Positions 34,509 to 49,571 of a stretch of 64,000 bases of DNA are shown piece by piece. The notes below the pieces were generated by a model. The model worked only from the letters and a program-made list of their open reading frames with translations. It was not told the DNA's origin and did no database searches. How positions within the stretch are numbered: the stretch's first letter is position 1; every line of letters begins with the position of its first letter. Source of the stretch: an uncultured Clostridiaceae bacterium (GTDB lineage Bacteria > Bacillota > Clostridia > TANB77 > CAG-465); the NCBI GenBank assembly GCA_947169155.1, contig CAMVON010000003.1, forward strand, positions 5,910 through 69,909, read 5' to 3'. The position numbers were made by a program, and so were the translations under genes.

Positions 34509-34675
34509 ATATGTCTATTTTACTTTACATAAAATTGATTTTGCGCCTAAAATACATTTTTAAATTGTTACAAAATACTAGTTTTGTCTATGACAAATTA
34601 TAACACAGAAAACACCTTGAAATCGCTTTGTGTATGGGCTTTGCAGTGGTATAACTTTAACCGAGGTGATTAAAA

Positions 34676-36069: not shown

Positions 36070-37005
36070 TTATCTTATTTTTCCTGTGTTTGGATTTTCT
36101 ATCCAATCATCTGGTTTGTTTTTAGTATCAGAATTAACTACTTTAAACATAGTAGTTTTTCCACCATCTTTAACTTTATTTCCTGCTTTGTCTTGTGCAG
36201 TTCCAGCAGCTATAGTGACGTATTTAAGTCCACCTAAGTTACCAGAAATATTAGATAGTGTTACTGTTCTTTTTGAGTTTCCTTCACCTGTAATCTTAAT
36301 ATCTGCTTTAAATCCGTATAGTTCTATATCTTTTGGCTCTAAAGTAATTGAAGTGACTTCTTTGTTATCTTTATATATGATATCAAAAGTAATTGTTTCT
36401 CCAATTTCACAACTAGATTTAGAAAATTCAGCTATCTCCATTGTTGGAGCAACTTCATCTTTTTCTTCTGGTTTTTGCTCTGGATTTTGGTTGTTATTAT
36501 TTCCGTTGTCTGTTGAAGGTGGTAATTGGTTATTACCATTATCTGGATTGCTTGGTTGTGGTTGAGGAGTAGGTTCTGGAGTATATGATGCTATAATTGT
36601 AAATCCAGTTGAATACCCTGTCTCTTTAGATCCACCACTTGCATTTGATGCAGCACCAGCTACAATACATATTTGCCCAACAGCACCAACACTACCTTGA
36701 ATATTACTTAGTACTATAGTTCTTTCTGAGTTACCAGAACCAGAGATACTAATGTTTGCTGTAACTCCGCCAATAAGTCTAACATCACTTGGTTTTAGTG
36801 TTACACTTGTAGCCCCATTATATATAGATACTGGATAAGTAACTGTTCCACCAACTTCAACAGTTCCAGAACTTGGTCCACCTATACCAAATCTAGGAAT
36901 AACAGCAAATACAATATTTGAACATGTACATACTAGTACCATTACTAGTACCATACATAAATATAATGCTTTTTTCTTCATATTTATCTTTCTCCTTAAA
37001 TACAT
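36070..37005 (-). CDS. exported surface protein with internal duplication and Pro/Asn-rich linker
   Basis: Signal peptide MKKKALYLCMVLVMVLVCTCSNIVFA; two related ~100-aa modules (…LSNIQGSVGAVGQICIVAGAASNASGG… / …LSNISGNLGGLKYVTIAAGTAQDKAGN…) joined by PEPTPQPQPSNPDNGNN…. Confidence 0.55.
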   Translation of the reverse strand: MYLRRKINMKKKALYLCMVLVMVLVCTCSNIVFAVIPRFGIGGPSSGTVEVGGTVTYPVSIYNGATSVTLKPSDVRLIGGVTANISISGSGNSERTIVLSNIQGSVGAVGQICIVAGAASNASGGSKETGYSTGFTIIASYTPEPTPQPQPSNPDNGNNQLPPSTDNGNNNNQNPEQKPEEKDEVAPTMEIAEFSKSSCEIGETITFDIIYKDNKEVTSITLEPKDIELYGFKADIKITGEGNSKRTVTLSNISGNLGGLKYVTIAAGTAQDKAGNKVKDGGKTTMFKVVNSDTKNKPDDWIENPNTGKIR

Positions 37006-37089: not shown

Positions 37090-39714
37090 CTATTGATTGT
37101 TTAATTCATTTAATCTTTCATCTATTTTTTCAATCATTTCAGTATATTTTGTAACTTTTTCTTTTTCACCTTCGATTAATTTTTCTGGTGCTTTAGATAC
37201 GAATTTTTCATTTGAAAGCATACCTTGAGCTCTCTTTAATTCGCTTTGTGCAGTTTCTTTTTCTTTTGTAAGTCTTTCAATTTCTGCAGCAATATCTACT
37301 AAATCATTAAATGGTATATATAGTTCAAGGTCTTGTGCAATGATTGAAATAGCGTTAGAATCAATTCCATCTTTTGTGTCTTGAATTTTAATCTCATTTG
37401 CAAATCCTAATTTTTCTAAGAATGCTTTACTTTCTTCAATTAAATCATTATATTTAGTAGTTACAAAGATTAATTCAGATTTTTTAGATGGATGAACATT
37501 CATATTATTTCTAATATTTCTAATTCCAACTATTAATTCTTTTAACATCTCAATTTGAGCTTCTTCGTCTTCAAATGCAAATTCATCTGTATATTCTGGG
37601 AAAGCTGTAATCATAATAGATTCTTCAGTATTTGGAAGCTCTTTATAGATTTCCTCAGTTACAAATGGCATTATTGGATGAAGCATTTTTAAGCTGTTTA
37701 TTAATACTGTATAAAGTGTGAATTGTGCTTCTGCTCTTGTTGTACAATTCTCATCATATAATCTTGGTTTAACAAGCTCAATGTACCAGTCACAGAACTC
37801 ATTCCAAATGAAGTCATAAATTCTTTGGCAAGCAACACCTAAATCATAATTATCCACATTTTGAGTGATTTCTTTTGCTAGTGTGTTAGTTTTAGATAAT
37901 ATCCATTTATCTTCAGCACATAGTTTAGATTTATCATAATCACCAGTAAATCCTTCAAGATTCATTAGGACAAATTTAGATGCATTCCATAGTTTGTTTG
38001 CAAAGTTTGAACCTTGTTCAACTTTTGCAGGAATATATCTAATGTCATTACCAAAAGTAATACCAAGAATTAATGAAAATCTCAATGCGTCTGTACCATA
38101 TTCTGCTATAACGTCTAGTGGGTCAACTCCATTTCCAAGAGTTTTACTCATTTTTCTTCCTTGGTCATCTCTAACCATACCATGGATAATAACGTCAGAG
38201 AATGGCTTTTTACCTAGATATTCAAGACCACTAAATATCATTCTAGATACCCATAGAGGTATAATTTCATATCCAGTAACAAGTGTATTTGTTGGATAGA
38301 ATGTTTTTAAATCCTCTGTTTCATTTGGCCAACCTAATGTTGAGAAAGGCCATAAAGCAGAAGAGAACCAAGTATCTAGTGTATCTGGGTCTTGTGTTAA
38401 ATGTTCACATCCACACTTACTACATTTTTCTGGCATAGTTGCTCCAACATGAATTTCACCACAATTATCACAATAGTAAGCTGGAATTCTGTGTCCCCAA
38501 TATAATTGTCTAGAAATACACCAATCTTGAATGTTTTCCATCCAATTGAAATATGTTTTATCATATTTATTTGGTATAAATCTTGTATCGCCATTTCTTA
38601 CACATTCAATAGCTGGTTTAGCAAGTTCACTCATTTTAACAAACCATTGATCTGAAATATATGGTTCAATTGTTGTTTTACATCTTTCACATTTTGCTAC
38701 ATTATGTGTATAATCTTCTATTTTTAATAGATATCCTTGCTTATCTAGTAGATCTACTATGATGTCTCTGGCTTCCATAGTTGTTTTTCCTTCAACTTCT
38801 GGAATTAAAGGATGCATCATTAAATCATCTGTAAATACTTCTACAAATTCTAGATTATTTTTAATACCAGATTGATAGTCGTTTGGATCGTGGCAAGGAG
38901 TAAGTTTAACACATCCTGTACCAAATTCCATTTCAACGAATGGATCAGCTACAATTGGTATTTCTTTGTTCATTAATGGTAGAGTACAAGTTTTACCAAT
39001 TAAGTGTTTGAATCTATCATCTTTAGGGTTTACTGCAACACCAGTATCTCCAAGCATTGTTTCAGGTCTTGTTGTTGCAACTGTTAAGTATTCATCGCTT
39101 CCAGTAATTGGGTATTTAATATACCATAAATGTGAAGCTTCTTCTTTATATTCAACTTCAGCATCTGAAATACTTGTTTTACAATTTGGACACCAGTTAA
39201 TCATTCTTTTGCCTTTGTATATGTATCCTTTATTATATAATCTTAGGAATACTTCTTGTACAGCATTAGATAGTCCTTCATCTAAAGTAAATCTACTTCT
39301 AGACCAGTCACAAGAGCAACCAAGTTTTCTTTGTTGTTTTTGAATTGTTCCACCATATAGTCTTGTCCAAACCCAAGCTTTTTCTAAGAATTCTTCACGA
39401 GTTAAATCACTCTTTTTAATTCCTTGTTCCCTTAAACTTTGAACAACTTTCATTTCTGTAGATATAGCTGCATGATCAGTACCAGGAAGCCATAAAGTAT
39501 TAAAGCCTTTCATTCTTTTATATCTAATTAGGAAATCTTGAATAGCAGCATCTAGTGCATGTCCCATATGAAGTTTTCCTGTTACATTTGGAGGAGGCAT
39601 CATTATACAATAGCTTTCACGGCTTTTGTCCATACTTGGTTTAAAGTATCCTTTTTCCTCCCAATTTGAATAAATTTTATCTTCTCTTTCTTTAAAATTA
39701 AAATTACTTTCCAT
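37090..39714 (-). CDS. valS: valyl-tRNA synthetase
   Basis: PPPNVTGKLHMGHA (HIGH), KMSKTLGN (KMSKS), editing-domain and C-terminal coiled coil; 874 aa. Confidence 0.9.
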   Translation of the reverse strand: MESNFNFKEREDKIYSNWEEKGYFKPSMDKSRESYCIMMPPPNVTGKLHMGHALDAAIQDFLIRYKRMKGFNTLWLPGTDHAAISTEMKVVQSLREQGIKKSDLTREEFLEKAWVWTRLYGGTIQKQQRKLGCSCDWSRSRFTLDEGLSNAVQEVFLRLYNKGYIYKGKRMINWCPNCKTSISDAEVEYKEEASHLWYIKYPITGSDEYLTVATTRPETMLGDTGVAVNPKDDRFKHLIGKTCTLPLMNKEIPIVADPFVEMEFGTGCVKLTPCHDPNDYQSGIKNNLEFVEVFTDDLMMHPLIPEVEGKTTMEARDIIVDLLDKQGYLLKIEDYTHNVAKCERCKTTIEPYISDQWFVKMSELAKPAIECVRNGDTRFIPNKYDKTYFNWMENIQDWCISRQLYWGHRIPAYYCDNCGEIHVGATMPEKCSKCGCEHLTQDPDTLDTWFSSALWPFSTLGWPNETEDLKTFYPTNTLVTGYEIIPLWVSRMIFSGLEYLGKKPFSDVIIHGMVRDDQGRKMSKTLGNGVDPLDVIAEYGTDALRFSLILGITFGNDIRYIPAKVEQGSNFANKLWNASKFVLMNLEGFTGDYDKSKLCAEDKWILSKTNTLAKEITQNVDNYDLGVACQRIYDFIWNEFCDWYIELVKPRLYDENCTTRAEAQFTLYTVLINSLKMLHPIMPFVTEEIYKELPNTEESIMITAFPEYTDEFAFEDEEAQIEMLKELIVGIRNIRNNMNVHPSKKSELIFVTTKYNDLIEESKAFLEKLGFANEIKIQDTKDGIDSNAISIIAQDLELYIPFNDLVDIAAEIERLTKEKETAQSELKRAQGMLSNEKFVSKAPEKLIEGEKEKVTKYTEMIEKIDERLNELNNQ

Positions 39715-39738
39715 TATATTATCTCCTTTTCATTAAAA

Positions 39739-39936
39739 TTATCTAATTAACAAGTATAAGCAAAATAAAGAAATCATGCTCACGACGGAAGCTATAACCT
39801 TTATTTTTCCTACCATGTTATTTTCTAAATCATAGTTATTGTCTATACTTTTTATTACCCATCTTGCGTTTAACACAAAGACTATTGAAACTAAAAGACA
39901 GACGAGTGTAATAAATATTCCAAAATCTTTAAGCAT
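39739..39936 (-). CDS. small two-TM membrane protein located between the T-box leader and valS
   Basis: 65 aa; good RBS AAAGGAGATAAAGATT-ATG on the minus strand; hydrophobic throughout. Confidence 0.35.
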   Translation of the reverse strand: MLKDFGIFITLVCLLVSIVFVLNARWVIKSIDNNYDLENNMVGKIKVIASVVSMISLFCLYLLIR

Positions 39937-39970
39937 AATCTTTATCTCCTTTCAACTTAAAAATAATATA

Positions 39971-40230
39971 AAAAAACAGTCATTCTCCTTAAAACTTAAG
40001 GACGAATGACTGATAATTCGCGGTACCACCTTAATTCACAAACAAGTTGTGCACTTAATTAACAGATTTACCGACTGCAACGGAGCATACCTACACAAAA
40101 TTAATCTTCAATATGCCAGCTCGCAAGCTACCTTCAAATGTGTTTTTATAGAAGACCTTTCAGCCTGGTCGAGTCTTCCTCTCTAAATATAACCTTCATT
40201 TTACTCCTCTTGGTCATAGCTTTTGTATCA
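39971..40230 (-). promoter_or_regulatory. T-box riboswitch leader (tRNA-sensing) for valS
   Basis: Minus-strand AATTAAGGTGGTACCGCGAATT matches the T-box consensus AAUUAGGGUGGUACCGCG with one mismatch (plus coordinates 40015-40036). A terminator CAGTCATTC…GAATGACTG + U7 lies immediately downstream (39971-40012). A candidate promoter TTGAAT–17–TATACT is near 40226-40258. Confidence 0.7.
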
Positions 40231-40501
40231 ATATGTCATTAGTATAACATAATATTTTCCATAATTCAAGAAAAATTTCAAATATACTTGTATATTTTTT
40301 TTGTTTTAGATAAAATTTAAATGAAGAAGTGTTTTTTGTATAAAAAATGAAAAATAAACAAAAATATGTATTAAAAGAGCGTTATTTTGGTTTACATAAT
40401 TGAAAAATAACGTAAAATATGATATAATATTACATATAAAACGATAGAATAACAATGCAGAAAACAATAAAAAATTAATATTTGAAACGGAGGATAAGAA
40501 T

Positions 40502-40837
40502 ATGGAAGAAGATAAGGAAATGTTAAAACTTTTACATGATATTGAAGGTGGTAGAATTGGAGTTGAAGAAGTTGATGAAGAAACTGCAACAAGATTCCTT
40601 CAATTTATGAAAGAGCATATAAAAAATAAAATGGATGACATTAAGAGAATTAACAAAGAAATAGAAGAAGTAGAAGAAGAAACTGAAAGAGTTAATGCTG
40701 AAACAGCAGAAATTAACAAAGAGACAAGAAGAATAGAAGAAGAAAATGAAAAAGTAGATTCTCAATTAGTTGAAATGGAAAAAATAACAAAAGAATTCCA
40801 AGACAAAATTGAAAATATAACTGGAAACAATAATTAA
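40502..40837 (+). CDS. coiled-coil acidic small protein, paralog family A (copy 1)
   Basis: 111 aa; shares DEET..RF..FMKEHI.N.M..I with the ORF at 42026. Confidence 0.5.
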   Translation: MEEDKEMLKLLHDIEGGRIGVEEVDEETATRFLQFMKEHIKNKMDDIKRINKEIEEVEEETERVNAETAEINKETRRIEEENEKVDSQLVEMEKITKEFQDKIENITGNNN

Positions 40838-40860
40838 ATGTAGTAAAGGAGGAGATTAAA

Positions 40861-41802
40861 ATGGATGAGAAAAAATTATTAACAATCAAAAATTCAAAAG
40901 CTAGAGAGATGTTAGAAGCTATTGCAATTAACAAACAAACAGAAAACTTAAGAAAAAATAAGTTAGGTTTGTTTGACAGAGCAAAACAAATCTTAAATAG
41001 TGCAAGAAATGCAAAAGATAATGCTATAGTTAAGATGAAAGGTGCAATCTCAGATTTACAACTTAAACAAAAAGTTAAAGATAATGCAAAATCTATTTTA
41101 ATTGGTTCAACTGCATTTATAACTTTAACTGGAGGCATTATAGGATTTAATGCTCTACAACACAATGGACCAAGTCTTGAAGATGACGTTAAAGACAGAA
41201 CTGTACTTAGAGTAGATGATGGAAACAAAGAGACTGAAGCTCCAACAGAAGATGAAGTTAAAGAAGAAAATCATAAAGATCCAAATCAAAAAGTTACAAA
41301 AAATGGTACTGTAGACAAACATGGTAAATATACAAATGAAGATGGTACATTAAAAGATGAAATTAAAACTACAACAGAACATAATAAAGCTCCAGAAACT
41401 AAAACTGCAACTGGATCTAAAGAAAATACAATAAAAACTGAATCAAGCAAAGAATATGAAAAACAACAAGATGCTAAAATTCAAGCAGATAAAGATGCAG
41501 GAAAAAGTGTAGAAAGCTATTCTTCTACTGTAGAAATAGGTGGAAATAAAGTAACATACAATATTGAAGTTACAACAGATGCAAATGGTAAAAAAGATAC
41601 TTCAGTAACTAAGAAAGAAGAGCCAACAGCTCAAATTAGCAGCAAAGAAAATAAAGATTTATCTCAAGGTGAAGTTAAACAAGCTCAAGATGTAAATCAA
41701 GCAAAACAAAATATTGAACAAAAGAAAGAAGAAACAAAACCTGCACCACAACAAGAAGTTCAAGAAATGAGCGATGACGATTTAGCAGATTTATTCAAAT
41801 AA
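40861..41802 (+). CDS. membrane-anchored protein, paralog family B (copy 1)
   Basis: N-terminal coiled region, one TM (ILIGSTAFITLTGGIIGF), conserved KNGTVDKHGKYTNEDGTLKDEI box, acidic C-terminus EMSDDDLADLFK. Confidence 0.5.
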   Translation: MDEKKLLTIKNSKAREMLEAIAINKQTENLRKNKLGLFDRAKQILNSARNAKDNAIVKMKGAISDLQLKQKVKDNAKSILIGSTAFITLTGGIIGFNALQHNGPSLEDDVKDRTVLRVDDGNKETEAPTEDEVKEENHKDPNQKVTKNGTVDKHGKYTNEDGTLKDEIKTTTEHNKAPETKTATGSKENTIKTESSKEYEKQQDAKIQADKDAGKSVESYSSTVEIGGNKVTYNIEVTTDANGKKDTSVTKKEEPTAQISSKENKDLSQGEVKQAQDVNQAKQNIEQKKEETKPAPQQEVQEMSDDDLADLFK

Positions 41803-41817
41803 TAACTAACTAAATAG

Positions 41818-41850
41818 CCAAGTAGCTAAAAACTACTTGGTTATTTTTTT
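41818..41850 (+). terminator. rho-independent terminator (CCAAGTAG…CTACTTGG + T10)
   Basis: 8-bp stem then TTATTTTTTT; a near-identical terminator follows the second module at 43337-43370. Confidence 0.6.
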
Positions 41851-42025
41851 GCCAAATAAACTAGATTTTTAATGAAAGTAAACAAATTTAAACAAAATGG
41901 GTTTACATAATTGACAAGCTGTCTCAAAAGTGGTATAATTATATACGTGTTCAAAATTCGGGTGAACAAGAAAAAAATTATTAAATCTTAAGGAAAAATA
42001 AGTATTTAAACGGAGGATTTAGTAA

Positions 42026-42364
42026 ATGAAAAAATATGAAAATATGGAAAAATTATTAGAAGATCTTAAGTCTGGAGTAGTCAGAAGTATAGATCTAGAT
42101 GAAGAAACAGAATTGAGATTCATCATATTCATGAAAGAACATATAAGGAATAATATGGAAGAAATCGAAAACATGAATAAACAAATTCAAAAAACAGAAG
42201 AGGAGACAGCTCAAATCCTAGAAGAAACATCAAAAATGAATTTTCAAAATAAAGAGCTAAATTTAGAAAATGCAAAGCTAGATAAAGAGCTCATAAAACT
42301 AGCTTTAGCGACTGAAGATTATCAGAATAAAATTAATCAAATTAAAACTAACTTAAATAACTAA
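42026..42364 (+). CDS. coiled-coil acidic small protein, paralog family A (copy 2)
   Basis: 112 aa; paralog of 40502..40837. Confidence 0.5.
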   Translation: MKKYENMEKLLEDLKSGVVRSIDLDEETELRFIIFMKEHIRNNMEEIENMNKQIQKTEEETAQILEETSKMNFQNKELNLENAKLDKELIKLALATEDYQNKINQIKTNLNN

Positions 42365-42405
42365 TAGTACAAACATAATTAATGTAGTAGGAAATGAAGT
42401 AATAA

Positions 42406-43326
42406 ATGGAGGAAAGAAAAATGTCAAAGAAAAGAAATAATTATATTAGTAAAACAATCGAATTAGATAATCAAGTAAATCAAGTAAAAAGAGAAACTGA
42501 AAAGAAAGAATATGAGGCAAATGTAAAAAATATTGAAGCTAAAGCAAATAAAAAAGTTGCTCAAGCTGAAAATAAAGCAGCTAAAGAAACTAAAAAAGCT
42601 AAATCTCATAAGTTAAGAAATACTCTACTTACAATAACAGCCATCGGTATGTTAACAGGTGGAGCAATACTATACAATGGTAAAAACGATGTAAATGTTA
42701 GAAAAGATAATCCAGATGATTCAAGTATAGTTATAAAAGACGATGATAAAGACAAAGATACAAATACAATTGATCCTGGTAAAGTAATCACAGATTATGA
42801 CTATGTTAACAAAAACAAAGGTGGAAAAAGAACAAATAAAGGAACTTATGATGCTCATGGAAAATATACAGATTCAAATGGAAATTTAACAGATTCTATG
42901 AATCAATCACATGAGAATACAAATAATAAACCTCAAGCTAATTCTACAACTCAAGCTCCTGCAAACGTAGGAACTAAAGAAGGAGAAAAAAGCACTGAAG
43001 AGTATAATAATGAAACAAACAATAAAATAGACACTCAAGTACAAAATGGCGGTCAAAAACAAGAGATAGGTGGAGGAATAACTGTTGTAACAACTCCAGA
43101 TAATGAAAACACAACAAATAGTAATACAACTACAAAGCCTCAAACAGAAGATAAATCTAATGTTGATGCTAGGAATGTAACTCCAGATACATCTAGAAAA
43201 GTAACTGGAAATATAGTTGAAGCTCCATCAGACGAACCATCAGTTTCAGCAAGTTCTACAAGCACTCCAGAAAACAATGGAGTACAAGCAATGACAGACG
43301 AAGAACTTGAAGAATGGGCAAGATAA
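42406..43326 (+). CDS. membrane-anchored protein, paralog family B (copy 2)
   Basis: TM LLTITAIGMLTGGAILY, box TNKGTYDAHGKYTDSNGNLTDSM, C-terminus AMTDEELEEWAR. Confidence 0.5.
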   Translation: MEERKMSKKRNNYISKTIELDNQVNQVKRETEKKEYEANVKNIEAKANKKVAQAENKAAKETKKAKSHKLRNTLLTITAIGMLTGGAILYNGKNDVNVRKDNPDDSSIVIKDDDKDKDTNTIDPGKVITDYDYVNKNKGGKRTNKGTYDAHGKYTDSNGNLTDSMNQSHENTNNKPQANSTTQAPANVGTKEGEKSTEEYNNETNNKIDTQVQNGGQKQEIGGGITVVTTPDNENTTNSNTTTKPQTEDKSNVDARNVTPDTSRKVTGNIVEAPSDEPSVSASSTSTPENNGVQAMTDEELEEWAR

Positions 43327-43750
43327 AAATAGGATAACCAAGTAAAAATATCATTACTTGGTTATTTTTTTTACAAAAACTATATACTTTACATAAAATT
43401 TGTGATATAATAATGGTACCTAACATTTATGTTGTATCAATTTTGTGTACATGAATGGTATTTATAATTATGTAACTTTTTAGTTGCAAAATGCACTAAA
43501 TACTTGAAATTTACATAAAAATATGATATAATATAGGTGTAATAATATTGGTCGATATTTGAAGTTATTGCTTCGAATGAGTTAAGTGTAAAATATAATG
43601 TCTAGAGAAATCTAGAGTTTTGTCCGTTATAACACGTTTGCTTATTCTGCATGACTTCATTTTTTTGTACTCAATATTGTTATAGGTTTGGACGTTAAGA
43701 CGTTCAATATTCCATAAATTTAAAATAATAGGAAAGGAAGGAGAATAATT

Positions 43751-45097
43751 ATGGAAAAAAGTAACAATCAATTAAGTAACACCCAGAGAGGAGGTATGTT
43801 AGAAACATTATTCTTATGTTTAGCTCCAATGCTATTCTGGATCATAGTTAAAGAAGTGCTATGCACGGGATTGTTCATCACTTTGTTGATGGTAATCAAA
43901 TATGCTATGTTAAAGAAAGCTAACGCAAAACAAAGAGGATTAGTTCCTAGCAAATACTTCTACATTACATTTGGAGGTCTAACAGCTGTAATAGTTGCTA
44001 TTATGGGTTACCATATGGTATTCTGTCACAATGTTAAGACTGAAGATAACGTAAACAAAGAACCTGAAACAGTTGAATCTGTTCCAGAAGAACAAAAAGA
44101 AGAAGTTAAAGCAGATGACAAAACTGAAGAAACTTCAAACCAAAAAGACCCAAATGGTCGCAAAGTTGCTGGTTCAAGAACTTGGGATGCACATGGTGCA
44201 TACACAAATCCTGACGGAACTTTGAAAGATGCAATCGTGGCTAAGAAAGAAGCTAACGATCCAACAAAATCAGCTCCAAAAGCTGAAACAACTACTGGTA
44301 AGACAGAAAACACAATCGTTGACAATTCAAATGCGAAAGCAGATGAAAAAACAGAGAAAATTATCGAAGAGGCTAGAAAAGATGATACTAAGAAAGTTGA
44401 AGACTATAAGAACGACATCGTAGTTATCACTACTCCAGCTACTGAAGATAAAAAGGTTGAAGAACCAAAATCTGTTGATCCTGCAAAGGATATTAAAGTT
44501 GACGAAAACGAAGTAAAGGACATTCCTTCTAACGAAAACAAAGTTGAAGAAACAACTATCTCAGAAGTATCTGAAGAAGACGACAAAGTCGTTGAAATGG
44601 ATAAAGATGAATTAGCTGAAGTATTCAAAAATGTTAAGAAAGAAGAAAAGTCTGAAAAAACTGCACCTAAAACTGAAGAACCAAAAGAAGAAGTTAAAGA
44701 AGATGTTGAAACTAAAACAGACGCTGTTGTTAAAACAGAAGAAGTAGTAGAAGAAACAATCGTTAACGAAGAAGCTAAAGGTAATGTTAAAGTTGAAGAA
44801 GCAGTTGAGGTAAAAACTGAAACACCTGTTGTTGAAGAAAAAGTTGAAGTTAAAAGTGTAGAAGCAGTAAAAGTTACAGCTATTGATGGTTATAATGCTA
44901 CTGTTGGAAGCACAATTCAATTTAAAGTATCAGGAGACGACGTTAAAATCGATGGATTAGACGGAATCAACTATACATTCAACAATGGAATACTTAGTGT
45001 AAACACTGGATCTGAAGCTACTGTATTAACAGTTGAAGCATCAAACTCAGTAAACACAGTTTCATTTGACATCACAATCAATGGAATTGCTCAATAA
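43751..45097 (+). CDS. membrane protein, paralog family B (copy 3, extended)
   Basis: Two to three TM helices, box RKVAGSRTWDAHGAYTNPDGTLKDAI, EMDKDELAEVFK, then a long K/E/V-rich extension and a beta-rich C-terminal ~90 aa. Confidence 0.5.
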   Translation: MEKSNNQLSNTQRGGMLETLFLCLAPMLFWIIVKEVLCTGLFITLLMVIKYAMLKKANAKQRGLVPSKYFYITFGGLTAVIVAIMGYHMVFCHNVKTEDNVNKEPETVESVPEEQKEEVKADDKTEETSNQKDPNGRKVAGSRTWDAHGAYTNPDGTLKDAIVAKKEANDPTKSAPKAETTTGKTENTIVDNSNAKADEKTEKIIEEARKDDTKKVEDYKNDIVVITTPATEDKKVEEPKSVDPAKDIKVDENEVKDIPSNENKVEETTISEVSEEDDKVVEMDKDELAEVFKNVKKEEKSEKTAPKTEEPKEEVKEDVETKTDAVVKTEEVVEETIVNEEAKGNVKVEEAVEVKTETPVVEEKVEVKSVEAVKVTAIDGYNATVGSTIQFKVSGDDVKIDGLDGINYTFNNGILSVNTGSEATVLTVEASNSVNTVSFDITINGIAQ

Positions 45098-45689
45098 GCT
45101 AAGTATATTTTCTGAGTTACCATACAACAAGATGTTTAAATAATAAGGTTTGGCAAAGAAAGCGTACTTGATTAGTTTTATGATTGGTATAAAGTTTTTT
45201 AGCATCAGAAAAAAACAAATCAGTACACAATAAAAGAATCAGTTTTTGTACGAAACGTGGTTGAATAATAAAAAGGAGTCTTGATTTTATTAATTTTATG
45301 AAAGTTATCGGAAACTCGCTAGAGTTCTTATAATGGAAGTGAATTAATAAAATATACACGTTTGGGGGCAACAAAGCTTATTAAATTCTATGTTGAATTT
45401 TTTAAGACTGACTTTACATCCTAAGAGATACATTGATACTGACTCATGAAGGAGAAAAACCCAATGGACACTTGTCCAGTACGCTTCTTTATTTATTATT
45501 TATTCGGACACTATCCAAGTTATTTAGGTAACGGGGGAAATATTGTGTTAAAGTTTTAATACAATATTTTTTTTGCCTTTTTTATGGTAAATACAACTAT
45601 TTTTCTTAAAAAAAGCAAAAAATAGGCTATCCCCGAAGGGATAGCTTGAAAAAAAATTATTAAAAAGGATTATTTTAACCACAAGGGTT

Positions 45690-45760
45690 AAAACAAGTAG
45701 ATCAGATTCGAACTGACACACCGGCATTGCCGAGCTCTTCCATTGAGCTTACTACACTTA
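45690..45760 (-). ncRNA. degenerate tRNA-like element (pseudo-tRNA) followed by a minus-strand terminator
   Basis: Minus-strand GCTC-AATGGAA-GAGC D arm and GTCAG-TTCGAAT-CTGAT T arm, but the anticodon arm collapses to a CGGCA-A-TGCCG palindrome and the acceptor pairs poorly. Terminator AGCTATCCC-ttcg-GGGATAGCT + T-run lies at 45618-45650 (minus). Confidence 0.3.
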
Positions 45761-45831
45761 TATTATAACATTAATTATTTCAAAATTCAAGTGTATTGTA
45801 TAATGTGGTATAATATTTCAAGGAGAATAAA

Positions 45832-46728
45832 ATGGAAAGATATAATAATTGTAAAATATGCCCACGTGAATGTGGTATAGATAGAACAAAACATAAAGGA
45901 ATATGTGGTGCAACAGACAAACTTAAAGTAGCTCTTGTTTCAACACACAATTTTGAGGAGCCATGTATTAGTGGTAAAGAAGGCTCAGGAACAATATTTT
46001 TTTCTAACTGTAATTTAAGATGTGTATACTGCCAAAACTATGAAATATCTAGAGATGGCTTTGGAAAAGAAATAACTATTGAACGCTTGGCAGATATAAT
46101 GATAGAACAACAAGAAAGAGGAGTAAACAATATAAATTTAGTTACGCCAACAATGTATATAGATAGTATAATTGAAGCAATTAAAATTGCCAAATCTAAA
46201 GGTTTATACATTCCAATAGTATATAACTCTAGTGGTTATGAAAAAAGTGAAACAATAGAAAAATTAAAAGGATACATAGATATATATTTACCAGACTTTA
46301 AATATGCAACAGATAGACTTGCAAAAAGATATTCAGGAATAGATAACTATGTAATAAATGCCAAAGAATCAATTGCTAAAATGATTATGCAAGTTGGAAA
46401 ACCTGTATTTAATGAAAAAGGAATACTAATATCTGGTGTAGTGATACGCCATATGATACTACCAAATAATGTTTTAAATACTAAATCTGTACTAAAATAT
46501 ATAGCAGATAATTTCAAAGATAAAGCATTAGTAAGTGTAATGGCACAATACTTTCCAACTGGAGATGCTATAAAAGACTATCCAGAGATAAATAGAAAGA
46601 TAACTAAAGAAGAACTTGAAGAAGTAGAAGATTACTTAAATGAATTAAATATAGAAAATGGATATATTCAAGAGCTTGGAGAACATGAAGAAGAATATGT
46701 TCCAAATTTTAATTTAGACAATGTATAG
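45832..46728 (+). CDS. radical SAM protein, PflX/COG1313-like (PFL-activase homolog)
   Basis: N-terminal CKICPRECG…GICG cluster and radical-SAM CNLRCVYCQN (Cx3Cx2C). Confidence 0.65.
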   Translation: MERYNNCKICPRECGIDRTKHKGICGATDKLKVALVSTHNFEEPCISGKEGSGTIFFSNCNLRCVYCQNYEISRDGFGKEITIERLADIMIEQQERGVNNINLVTPTMYIDSIIEAIKIAKSKGLYIPIVYNSSGYEKSETIEKLKGYIDIYLPDFKYATDRLAKRYSGIDNYVINAKESIAKMIMQVGKPVFNEKGILISGVVIRHMILPNNVLNTKSVLKYIADNFKDKALVSVMAQYFPTGDAIKDYPEINRKITKEELEEVEDYLNELNIENGYIQELGEHEEEYVPNFNLDNV

Positions 46729-47457: not shown

Positions 47458-48423
47458 ATGGAAATAAGAGAAATCTTTGATACAATTGAAAGTGACTCTA
47501 ATATGGACGAAGAACTTCAAAGAGATATTCTTGAAAAGATAGATAACATAGCTCGTGCAGATAAACTAGTTGATGGACTAGAAGAAAAAATTGAAGAACA
47601 CAAAGATGACCTTTCAGAGAAAGAATTAAAATATATAATAAATAAATGTATATCATATAAAAGCGTTTTTTATAGATTTAGAAATGGTGGAATTGTAGAC
47701 TATGATCAATTAAACGATATTACTTCTAGAATATTTGCTCTAGAAGAGAGCATTCGTGTAAATGATTTTGCTAAATGGAAACAAGAACTTCTAGAATATA
47801 AAGGCTCTAAGGAAGATAAAGAAGAAGATAAAATGCTTAAGAATATGCTTATGGTTGTACCAGAAGAAGCAAATGTTGTAGAAAAAGTAACTAGAATGTT
47901 TAAAAGAGCTTTTTGGAAATTAAAACAAAAATCTCAAAAGCATAAAGAAGAATCTGAAAAAGTAATTGAACTTCCACAAAATACATTTGTAGATTTAGCT
48001 GCAGAAGATGAAAGTTTGAATCCAAATTTAATTAAAGAAGAAAGTATTCAACCACAAGAAGAAATAGATGAAGAAGAAGCTTTAGAAGATAAATTTGGAG
48101 ATGACTTCATAGAAGAAGAAAAAATCACAGAAGAACCAATAGCAGAAGAAGTAGTTGAAGAAACTACTCAAGAAACTCCTATAGAAGTAGAAGAAAAGGT
48201 AGAAGTAATAGAAGAAGAACCAGTTAAAGAGGCACAAGAAATTGTCCCAGAAACAATAGAAGAAGTTGAAACTGTTGAAGAAATTTTAGAAGAACAACCA
48301 AAAAGAAGAAGAGCTGCAGTTATGAAAGAAGAAAAAGAGGAAATTAAGGAAGAAGCTAAGGAAGAAAGTGAAGAAGTACCTCAAAAAAGAGTAAGAAAAG
48401 CTGTTCAAAAGAAAAATAAATAA
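47458..48423 (+). CDS. Glu-rich acidic hypothetical protein with basic C-terminal tail
   Basis: 321 aa; long E/I/V/T-rich region; ends KRRRAAVMKEEKEE…KRVRKAVQKKNK. Confidence 0.45.
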   Translation: MEIREIFDTIESDSNMDEELQRDILEKIDNIARADKLVDGLEEKIEEHKDDLSEKELKYIINKCISYKSVFYRFRNGGIVDYDQLNDITSRIFALEESIRVNDFAKWKQELLEYKGSKEDKEEDKMLKNMLMVVPEEANVVEKVTRMFKRAFWKLKQKSQKHKEESEKVIELPQNTFVDLAAEDESLNPNLIKEESIQPQEEIDEEEALEDKFGDDFIEEEKITEEPIAEEVVEETTQETPIEVEEKVEVIEEEPVKEAQEIVPETIEEVETVEEILEEQPKRRRAAVMKEEKEEIKEEAKEESEEVPQKRVRKAVQKKNK

Positions 48424-49424: not shown

Positions 49425-49571
49425 GCATTGATTTCCATAAGTTCAGATTATAGTATCTGAGCTTTTTTTATTGCTCACTTCCTTGACATAATTCGACCTC
49501 TATGTTATAATATTTTATGTAAACAGCATAGATTTACCTTGAAAGAAAATTTTTAGAAGGGAGGCAAGAAT

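Follow-up and report, generated by a model that had tools for sequence, protein, structure and literature searches.

A tandem array of membrane-anchored proteins and coiled-coil partners in uncultured ruminant-gut Clostridia: candidate lineage-specific cell-surface coat proteins

The window analysed here is a 64,000-nucleotide (nt) stretch of DNA from an uncultured Clostridiaceae bacterium (assembly GCA_947169155.1, contig CAMVON010000003.1, positions 5,910 to 69,909). Positions 40380-45100 of this window carry five forward-strand open reading frames (ORFs), A1-B1, A2-B2 and B3, which make up three paralogous transcription units; the A genes encode small acidic coiled-coil proteins and the B genes encode membrane-anchored proteins with long acidic regions. 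We suggest tentatively, with a confidence slightly short of even, that the array encodes lineage-specific cell-surface coat proteins, that the A proteins dock on the cytoplasmic tails of B1 and B2, and that unit 1 (A1 and B1) is its variable part. Surface exposure, abundance, A-B binding and the biological role are what we infer from the computational evidence. We rate the A and B families as new and unclassified, and the kind of system as one already known, the surface proteins of Gram-positive bacteria; its unusual features are the cytoplasmic coiled-coil partner and the strain-variable cassette.

Organization of the array and its protein families

A reading of the DNA made without database searches (the original prediction) described paralogous modules arranged in tandem, each equipped with signals for its own expression. 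This description was borne out by significant paralogy, by a promoter scan and by orthologous loci in related genomes. A1 and A2 are 40% identical over 111 amino acids (aa) (E=4e-26), B1 and B2 are 30% identical over 140 aa (E=1e-7), and B1 and B3 are 31% identical over 289 aa (E=5e-18). The A and B genes lie 23 nt apart in unit 1 and 56 nt apart in unit 2 with no terminator in between, and thus belong to the same operon. The complete layout is kept in the orthologous loci.

All B paralogues share a transmembrane (TM) segment, a His/Tyr box, a VV(I/T)TTP strand and an acidic 'EM.DDELA.LFK' motif that is C-terminal in B1 and B2 and internal in B3. B1 (313 aa; 40861-41802, + strand) is a predicted type II membrane protein with a basic cytoplasmic tail (aa 1-76, net charge +9), a TM helix (aa 79-99) and an acidic low-complexity ectodomain that includes the box (aa 149-166, nt 41305-41358) and the C-terminal EMSDDDLADLFK. 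B2 (301 aa; 42421-43326, + strand) has a basic cytoplasmic helix (aa 1-66, +10), a TM helix (aa 69-85), the box (aa 141-158, nt 42841-42894), the strand in the form ITVVTTP and the C-terminal AMTDEELEEWAR. Its start had been placed at 42406, which gives 306 aa; position 42421 is more likely, as it has GGAGG 8 nt upstream and yields the 301-aa product that matches the gene calls at all other loci. B3 (448 aa; 43751-45097, + strand) starts with three predicted TM helices (nt 43796-44023), continues into an acidic disordered stalk (aa 95-365, nt 44033-44845) that holds the box (aa 143-160, nt 44177-44230), IVVITTP and EMDKDELAEVFK, and ends in an immunoglobulin (Ig)-like domain (aa 366-448, nt 44846-45094). 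The B family was thus rightly recognized as membrane proteins, and the single TM helix initially ascribed to its members does not apply to B3.

The ectodomains of B1 and B2 are rich in K, E, T, D and N and have net charges of -14 and -15, respectively, while that of B3 reaches -32; the loop between the second and third TM helices of B3 has a charge of +5. Given this charge distribution, which follows the positive-inside pattern, and the Ig-like domain, the B proteins are predicted to adopt an N-in/C-out topology that would place the large acidic region outside the cell.

The B3 structure predicted by AF2 contains helices at residues 9-34, 36-61 and 68-93, a region of low predicted local distance difference test (pLDDT) values (<50 at residues 100-360) and a beta-sandwich at residues 368-445 with a pLDDT of 94. 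AF2 and Foldseek identify the 'beta-rich end' noticed earlier as an Ig-like domain. In Foldseek it matched Ig-like, PKD and Big_2-type domains with E-values from 4e-4 to 1e-3, the best fold matches being the C-terminal Ig-like domain of lambda gpV (E=3.6e-4, TMt 0.60), the PKD domain of ColG and S-layer domains of SbsC. Big_2/PKD-type domains occur in surface proteins and in phage tail or decoration proteins, and the 80 C-terminal residues of B3 resemble them in forming a confident beta-sandwich. Unlike them, B3 matches no hidden Markov model (HMM) of an Ig family, and instead of being part of a rigid tandem array its one domain caps a disordered stalk. When the isolated domain was compared with Pfam (PF02368/Big_2, PKD and other Ig HMMs) at E<=0.1, only DUF5873 was found (E=0.054).

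The box follows the consensus G-T-x-D-x-H-G-x-Y-T-x-x-D/N-G-x-L-x-D, and across 16 family members its D, G, Y and D positions do not vary. An assignment of the box to choline- or cell-wall-binding (CW_binding_1) or MORN repeats was rejected: a scan at E<=10 gave only MORN at E=0.23 in B2 and nothing in B1 or B3, and each protein has a single copy. The B proteins also do not belong to the LPXTG sortase-anchored class, as their C-termini read ...DLFK, ...EWAR and ...NGIAQ and their anchor is N-terminal. The idea that the Ig domain of B3 is related to the beta domains of orf311, a secreted protein encoded nearby, was likewise rejected.

A1 (111 aa; 40502-40837, + strand, with the ribosome-binding site AACGGAGGA) is acidic (net charge -16) and predicted to be cytoplasmic; its N-terminal head (aa 1-45) is conserved and leads into a long helix of the coiled-coil type. 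Its paralogue A2 (112 aa; 42026-42364, + strand) has a net charge of -7. The A structure predicted by AF2 (pLDDT 90) has a helix at residues 2-15 followed by one unbroken 83-residue helix (26-108), and the N-terminal ~45 residues are constant in all A1 and A2 proteins. These features support the original view of A as a cytoplasmic protein of the coiled-coil type. The possibility that A is a small helical substrate of the WXG100/type VII secretion kind was rejected because of the single unbroken helix, the absence of Trp and the lack of a Pfam match; an origin of A by fusion or fission from the N-terminal domain of protein P0007 was also rejected (hhalign probability 0.2%).

Neither family could be assigned, as the original prediction had stated: Pfam, NCBIfam, PHROGs, PADLOC, PDB sequence searches and Foldseek gave nothing specific. 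In the first four of these databases, B proteins had no match above the cut-off, and A1 and A2 stayed below it, with only coiled-coil noise (COG6_N, APG6_N, SpiroCoCo, SMC, LmuB); in PADLOC, the A hits were limited to SMC-like LmuB/JetC noise at E>=7e-4. The A profile compared with PDB sequences and the A model compared with PDB folds returned generic coiled coils or nothing. Isolated box peptides, the Ig domain and the extra N-terminal domain of one B1 allele (type II) had no Pfam or PDB match, and an exact-sequence look-up of the window B1 returned no record.

Distribution, ancestry and strain variability

Word-index searches recovered orthologues from a single syntenic locus only, with the gene order valS, a 65-aa ORF, A1, B1, A2, B2, B3, a gap of ~700 nt, a radical-SAM gene and a NUDIX gene. 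The A-B-A-B-B3 array is confined to one clade of uncultured ruminant-gut "Clostridia bacterium" metagenome-assembled genomes (MAGs) and is always located between valS and the radical-SAM/NUDIX genes. Searching 185,579 species-representative genomes for the box pattern revealed one locus, with the same five genes, in MAG RGIG5622 from sheep duodenum; 241 million metagenome records scanned for A added one locus from the same species. The array is retained in a more distant species (locus L018). In another locus, L020 (1508-1842), the A2 coding sequence is cleanly deleted, and the unit 2 promoter, its 5' hairpin, the A2-B2 junction and B2 are kept. Among 2.9 million viral contigs no relatives of A or B were found, and a phage origin was rejected on this ground.

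An exhaustive HMMER search for the B family yielded 69 cluster representatives. Most of them are B3-like, with two or three TM helices, an acidic low-complexity region, a DDEL.DLF-like motif and a conserved C-terminal domain. The His/Tyr box is missing from most of these relatives; the box that had been described for the family is present in B1, B2 and B3 and is a clade-specific feature. Two distant loci, L012 and L013, contain valS, a gene for a secreted 303-aa protein, a short B gene (200-216 aa, without the cytoplasmic tail), a B3-like gene and the radical-SAM gene, and have no A gene. The A gene was found only in the clade whose B1 and B2 have cytoplasmic tails. The lack of A in L012 and L013 and the mostly B3-like nature of the relatives indicate that B3 is the ancestral form, and that A and the tails on the cytoplasmic side of B1 and B2 arose as novelties in the array-carrying clade. 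This reverses the proposed direction of change, in which unit 3 had lost its small partner and gained an extension: the B3 type is the widespread ancestral state.

A second B3-like lineage (P0081/P0086, 432-483 aa; L015:8742-11299, IKD74_00745) is present in the same MAGs at a different locus, adjoining PBP1A, NAGPA, PAP2 and a 332-aa gene without annotation; only one promoter precedes it, and its leader of 152 nt is unremarkable. In many distant B3-like proteins (such as P0047, P0048, P0050 and P0065), we observed a conserved 'LGC' at the junction of the first and second TM helices. The residues before it form a basic n-region and a hydrophobic segment, an arrangement reminiscent of lipoprotein signal peptides with their lipobox; the corresponding segment of the window B3 (…EVLCTG…) does not fit a lipobox.

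Unit 1 stands out from its surroundings in strain comparisons. Between the window and locus L001, aa identity is 97% for the radical-SAM protein, 99% for NUDIX, 97% for A2, 99% for B2 and 84% for B3, and falls to 65% for A1 and 34% for B1. The same comparison with locus L007 gives 95% (radical SAM), 92% (NUDIX), 78% (A2), 76% (B2), 66% (B3), 39% (A1) and 30% (B1). Synonymous divergence (dS) from L001 is 0.71-0.91 in unit 1 versus 0.02-0.12 in the other genes, except for B3 (0.20). Such a high dS relative to the flanks argues for replacement of the unit by recombination and not simply for faster evolution. At least four allele types of unit 1 were distinguished, and the cytoplasmic tail of B1 is wholly different among them; one allele has an extra cytoplasmic domain of ~200 aa and one lacks the box. 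The fourth type, that of L020, is without the His/Tyr box. The coiled coil and the acidic tail of A1 differ among allele types as well, changing together with the B1 tail. Judged from these sequence comparisons, unit 1 appears to be swapped between strains as a block, and its variability fits diversifying selection on an exposed molecule (by phage, host antibody or competitors).

The ratio of nonsynonymous to synonymous divergence (omega) is 0.05-0.13 in the housekeeping neighbours, 0.3-0.44 in the B ectodomains and 0.06-0.11 in the Ig domain; for the array genes compared with locus L006 it is 0.12-0.34. Values below one identify the array genes as real genes under purifying selection of uneven strength.

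Unit 1 resembles variable antigen loci, such as the mycoplasma Vlp/Vsa systems and the S-layer cassettes of C. difficile, in being replaced between close strains with near-identical flanks, and the predicted exposed regions of the array are low-complexity and charged as in those systems. It differs from them in that no repeats, invertible elements, recombinase or homopolymer switches were seen at the array, the variation is allelic between genomes, and the variable unit includes a cytoplasmic partner.

The hypervariability of unit 1, with its recombination between near-identical genomes and at least four allele types, could also be expected of a strain-variable exclusion or defence cassette acting by superinfection exclusion, receptor masking or as an abortive-infection membrane module, and the arrangement of two-gene modules of a small and a membrane protein, with a promoter and a terminator for each unit, is compatible with this explanation. 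We nevertheless regard it as quite improbable: PADLOC gave no match beyond coiled-coil noise for A and none for B, viral contigs had no relatives, no effector domain was found, the array occupies a fixed core-genome site that is syntenic across species and has no mobile-element genes, and unit 2 and B3 are not hypervariable.

Still less probable is a role in envelope morphogenesis, with A as a DivIVA/GpsB/EzrA-like adaptor that would place wall-spanning B proteins at division sites or poles, and with B motifs that would recruit wall enzymes. The long cytoplasmic coiled coil of A with its conserved head, the short conserved linear motifs of B amid a variable intrinsically disordered region (IDR), and the location of the second B3-like lineage next to the PBP1A, NAGPA and PAP2 genes agree with such a tether. 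On the other hand, similarity of A to DivIVA, GpsB, EzrA, ZapA and FtsL is restricted to generic coiled-coil scores below the cut-off, hypervariability and loss of A2 would be unexpected in core factors, and the family is confined to one small clade.

Expression signals and predicted expression of B3

A 6.2-kb scan (39700-45900) for sigma70-type promoters returned as its three top matches precisely the three unit promoters, all with a TG extended -10 element: 41911-41939 (12/12), 40400-40428 (11/12) and 43504-43532 (11/12). In cross-species alignments GTTTACATAATTGA(A/C)A and TGnTATAAT are invariant and the 17-nt spacer is variable, which is the pattern of a functional promoter. The -35 element had been read as TTTACATAATTGA(A/C)A; the actual -35 box is the TTGA(A/C)A inside it, and GTTTACATAA is an additional invariant element immediately upstream.

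The unit 1 promoter (40389-40428, + strand) consists of the upstream GGTTTACATAA and TTGAAA-N17-TGaTATAAT, the hexamers and the upstream element being invariant in five loci. The unit 2 promoter (41900-41939, + strand) contains GGTTTACATAA followed by TTGACA-N17-TGgTATAAT and is invariant in six loci including the distant L018 and L020. Near the 5' end of the unit 2 leader, a hairpin (41946-41970, + strand; CGTGTTCAAAATTCGGGTGAACAAG) is invariant across six loci. Unit 1 ends in a terminator at 41818-41850 (+ strand; CCAAGTAGCTAAAAACTACTTGG then TTATTTTTTT), a hairpin found by the scan and kept in orthologues, and unit 2 ends in a hairpin with a T-run at 43336-43372 (+ strand; AACCAAGTAA...TTACTTGGTT then ATTTTTTTT). 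The proposal that each unit has its own promoter and terminator thus holds for all three promoters and for the terminators of units 1 and 2; no terminator directly follows the B3 stop codon.

The leader of B3 is more elaborate than the single promoter and ~190-nt 5' untranslated region (UTR) attributed to unit 3 before: there are two tandem promoters and a leader of ~211 nt. The upstream promoter (43388-43411, + strand; TTTACATAAAATTTG-TGaTATAAT) is of the extended -10 type and kept in six loci. The downstream promoter (43504-43532, + strand) reads TTGAAA-N17-TGaTATAAT, with TTTACATAA within the spacer and the TG counted in its extended -10, and is also conserved. Tandem TGnTATAAT pairs spaced by 112-122 nt occur upstream of B3 in all valS-linked loci including L012 and L013. 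The 5' leader (43540-43750, + strand) contains a long extended stem from its 5' end, a small hairpin at ~43688-43705 and a strong ribosome-binding site, AGGAAAGGAAGGAG. Its minimum free energy is -56.4 kcal/mol (z=-4.7; none of 200 shuffled sequences was equally stable), and its consensus fold includes six compensatory pairs. Leaders of 200-340 nt precede B3 in all valS-linked loci, the distant ones included. A riboswitch or other known RNA in the leader was ruled out, as Rfam gave no match even at E<=1.

The first good terminator downstream of B3 on the + strand is a candidate read from the sequence at 45538-45574 (AAATATTGT...ACAATATTT then T8), in which the tract TTTTTTTTGCCTTTTTT is invariant in seven loci. 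If it is used, B3 would have a 3' UTR of about 440-470 nt. The ~440 nt between the B3 stop codon and this terminator (45098-45537, + strand) are non-coding and contain conserved blocks and a small covarying hairpin, TGGACACTTGTCCA (45465-45478); the frame of possible short ORFs in this interval is not conserved. The interval may be part of the B3 transcript, as a long 3' UTR, or may give rise to another RNA.

Across the window as a whole, the 9-mer TTTACATAA shows no enrichment (6 copies vs 4.3 expected). Its copies are located at 40391, 41902, 43388 and 43510 on the + strand, at 34524 (+) and at 49515 (-), so that four of the six lie in the four array promoters, where they are invariant across species. 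The fifth copy is ~100 nt upstream of an unannotated 352-aa ORF at 34630. The 9-mer may be a promoter-proximal or UP-like element, a site for a common regulator, or a mere sign of shared ancestry.

Codon usage sets B3 apart from the rest of the window. We used as an index the C-ending fraction of Phe, Tyr, His, Asn, Asp and Ile codons (ATC vs ATT for Ile). It is an established general rule (Sharp et al. 2005) that C-ending codons for Phe, Tyr, Ile and Asn are translationally preferred in highly expressed bacterial genes. The index of B3, 0.573, is the highest among 56 window genes (median 0.168, next highest 0.367, z=5.7), and the bias is uniform along the gene. Elevated values are also seen in B3 orthologues (0.57, 0.48, 0.40), in distant B3-like genes (0.33, 0.47), in the ancestral short B genes (0.32, 0.47) and in the second B3-like lineage (0.42 vs 0.07-0.17 in its neighbours). 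By these sequence criteria B3 looks very highly expressed, and its promoters, leader, ribosome-binding site and codons together point to a component of a surface coat or brush rather than to a sensor.

The very high expression of Lactobacillus S-layer genes is linked to a long structured 5' UTR, codon bias, efficient promoters and the use of two promoters (PMC3666127). B3 has all four of these features, and the array resembles the S-layer or major coat genes of Gram-positive bacteria (such as Lactobacillus slpA) further in having several paralogous surface-protein genes at one locus and strain-level variability. Unlike S-layer proteins, B3 lacks a cleavable signal peptide as well as SLH, CWB2 and any other wall-binding domain, and three TM helices serve as its anchor; Pfam and NCBIfam searches found no sequence homology to S-layer proteins. 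With ~60% of B3 predicted to be disordered, a crystalline lattice seems unlikely.

The main competing explanation for the B1-A1 and B2-A2 pairs is transmembrane signalling, in which the disordered ectodomain of B would sense the wall or the environment and release or rearrange the coiled-coil A in an RsgI-like manner. The B proteins share with RsgI and PBP1 of B. subtilis a type II N-in/C-out topology and a long low-complexity extracytoplasmic region that could thread the peptidoglycan meshwork (Brunet et al. 2022, PMC9732909). They share with RsgI a cytoplasmic N-terminal segment that binds a partner, which is sigma-I for RsgI and would be A for B1 and B2. Extracytoplasmic IDRs of membrane-anchored proteins can sense peptidoglycan gaps (PMC9732909), a capacity that would suit the combination of cytoplasmic tail, TM helix, extracytoplasmic IDR and co-transcribed cytoplasmic partner in B1 and B2; the head common to all A proteins could likewise serve a common downstream contact. 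However, Pfam and NCBIfam detect no RsgI_N, SEAL or enzymatic domain in B, no sigI or other sigma-factor gene is present in the locus, and no sigma factor, anti-sigma factor, kinase, DNA-binding domain or SEAL protease-site domain was found in A, B or their neighbours. The proposed partner A is a bare coiled coil, B3 seems too highly expressed for a sensor, and both B3 and the ancestral short B are partnerless and show the optimised codon usage of abundant structural proteins. It would be unusual for a low-copy sensor to have constitutive promoters this close to the consensus; moreover, unit 1 is exchanged between strains and A2 can be lost. We therefore consider signalling unlikely, although the least so of the three alternatives. 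Of the 'signalling or envelope function' first suggested for the array, the envelope part is the best-supported reading; the sensor-like part finds no output domain or regulator and is at odds with the structural-type expression signature of B3 and the strain variability of unit 1.

Proposed model, neighbouring elements and significance

According to the surface-coat interpretation, the B family would comprise N-terminally membrane-anchored proteins in an N-in/C-out orientation that expose acidic disordered stalks with a few short conserved motifs. B3 would be the major form, with a three-helix anchor, a stalk whose ~270 residues could span the wall of a Gram-positive cell, and an Ig-like domain at the far end, and it would be made in very large amounts owing to tandem strong promoters, a stabilising leader, a strong ribosome-binding site and optimised codons. 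B1 and B2 would be derived, lower-abundance forms in which the Ig tip and two TM helices have disappeared and a helical cytoplasmic tail of basic charge has been added. The variable acidic coiled coil of A could bind this tail, and its constant head could contact a common cytoplasmic partner or oligomerise, linking or clustering B on the cytoplasmic side. Exchange of unit 1 among strains would then diversify an exposed molecule. Our reasons for proposing the A-B interaction are the common operon, the restriction of A to the clade whose B proteins have tails, the complementary charges and the joint change of the variable parts; judging from these sequence features, A probably binds the tails of B1 and B2.

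Several observations weigh against this interpretation. Codon usage of A1, B1, A2 and B2 is at the background level, so these proteins would not be major coat components. The reference set for the codon index consists of 55 window genes without ribosomal-protein genes, and the prediction of high B3 expression thus rests on the general codon rule. No cell-wall-binding or self-assembly domain is detectable in B, and the pLDDT of the box is only ~50. In L020, A2 is lost while B2 keeps its cytoplasmic helix, which makes an obligate A2-B2 complex unlikely. Finally, block recombination alone would be able to make A1 and B1 co-vary without physical contact.

The surroundings of the array contain other conserved elements. 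The gap between B3 and the radical-SAM gene holds a conserved unit of ~145 nt on the opposite strand that resembles a small RNA (45616-45790, - strand). It has its own promoter, TTGAAT-17-TGtTATAAT (45790-45762), followed by a tRNA-like domain (45758-45693) with D- and T-arms and an anticodon loop collapsed to 1-4 nt; the domain scores 28.4 bits with the Rfam tRNA model vs a gathering score of 29 and is negative in ARAGORN. The 3' part includes a hairpin, the U-rich and invariant tract AAUAAUCCUUUUUAAUAAUUUUUUUU, and the terminator of the unit (45645-45616). Thirteen loci cover the site, the distant L012 and L013 among them, and in all of these the unit is nearly invariant, with compensatory changes in the anticodon-stem equivalent, in the T-stem and in the third hairpin. 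No Rfam family matched it at the gathering score, and a literature search found none.

On the other side of the array, the 65-aa ORF (39739-39936, - strand), which encodes two hydrophobic helices, is located between a T-box leader (39995-40226, Rfam 119 bits) and the start of valS (39714), and from this position would be transcribed before valS, with the T-box in control. Gene calls in every related locus include this 65-aa gene. Farther upstream, orf311 (36070-37005, - strand) encodes an unannotated 311-aa protein with a signal peptide and two beta-rich domains on either side of a P/N/Q-rich linker, and without a Pfam match. Its conserved extreme C-terminus, KNKPDDWIENPNTG(K/R), resembles a sortase-like NPxTG motif and is not followed by a hydrophobic segment. 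The orthologue of orf311 in L012 and L013 is the immediate neighbour of the short-B and B3-like genes. Every locus also has, downstream of NUDIX, a conserved gene for a very acidic, E-rich protein (in the window 321 aa; 47458-48423, + strand) that has no family match and evolves relatively fast (omega 0.16-0.42 vs 0.05-0.13 for the radical-SAM and NUDIX genes).

A bolder version of the surface-coat interpretation, which we offer as speculation and consider rather unlikely as a whole, is that the array builds a polyelectrolyte 'brush' of Ig-tipped B3 together with B1/B2 tethers coupled to A. This would be a previously undescribed Gram-positive surface architecture, in which unit 1 would serve as a strain-identity, phage-receptor or immune-evasion cassette, that is, a variable surface-antigen system with a cytoplasmic component in uncultured small-intestinal Clostridia.

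The significance of these findings is bounded by the narrow range of the family, as the box was found in 1 of 185,579 species representatives and the B family comprises ~69 protein clusters overall. The series from the tail-less short B, through B1 and B2 with a tail and A, to the Ig-tipped B3 is a natural one for the study of extracytoplasmic disordered regions. If the surface-coat interpretation is true, few envelope proteins of this widespread, uncultured lineage of ruminant-gut Clostridia are likely to exceed those of the B3 type in abundance. B3 would then set the surface chemistry of these bacteria, a strongly acidic disordered layer ending in an Ig-like domain, and unit 1 could serve to mark strains and would be a candidate locus for a phage receptor or an antigen.

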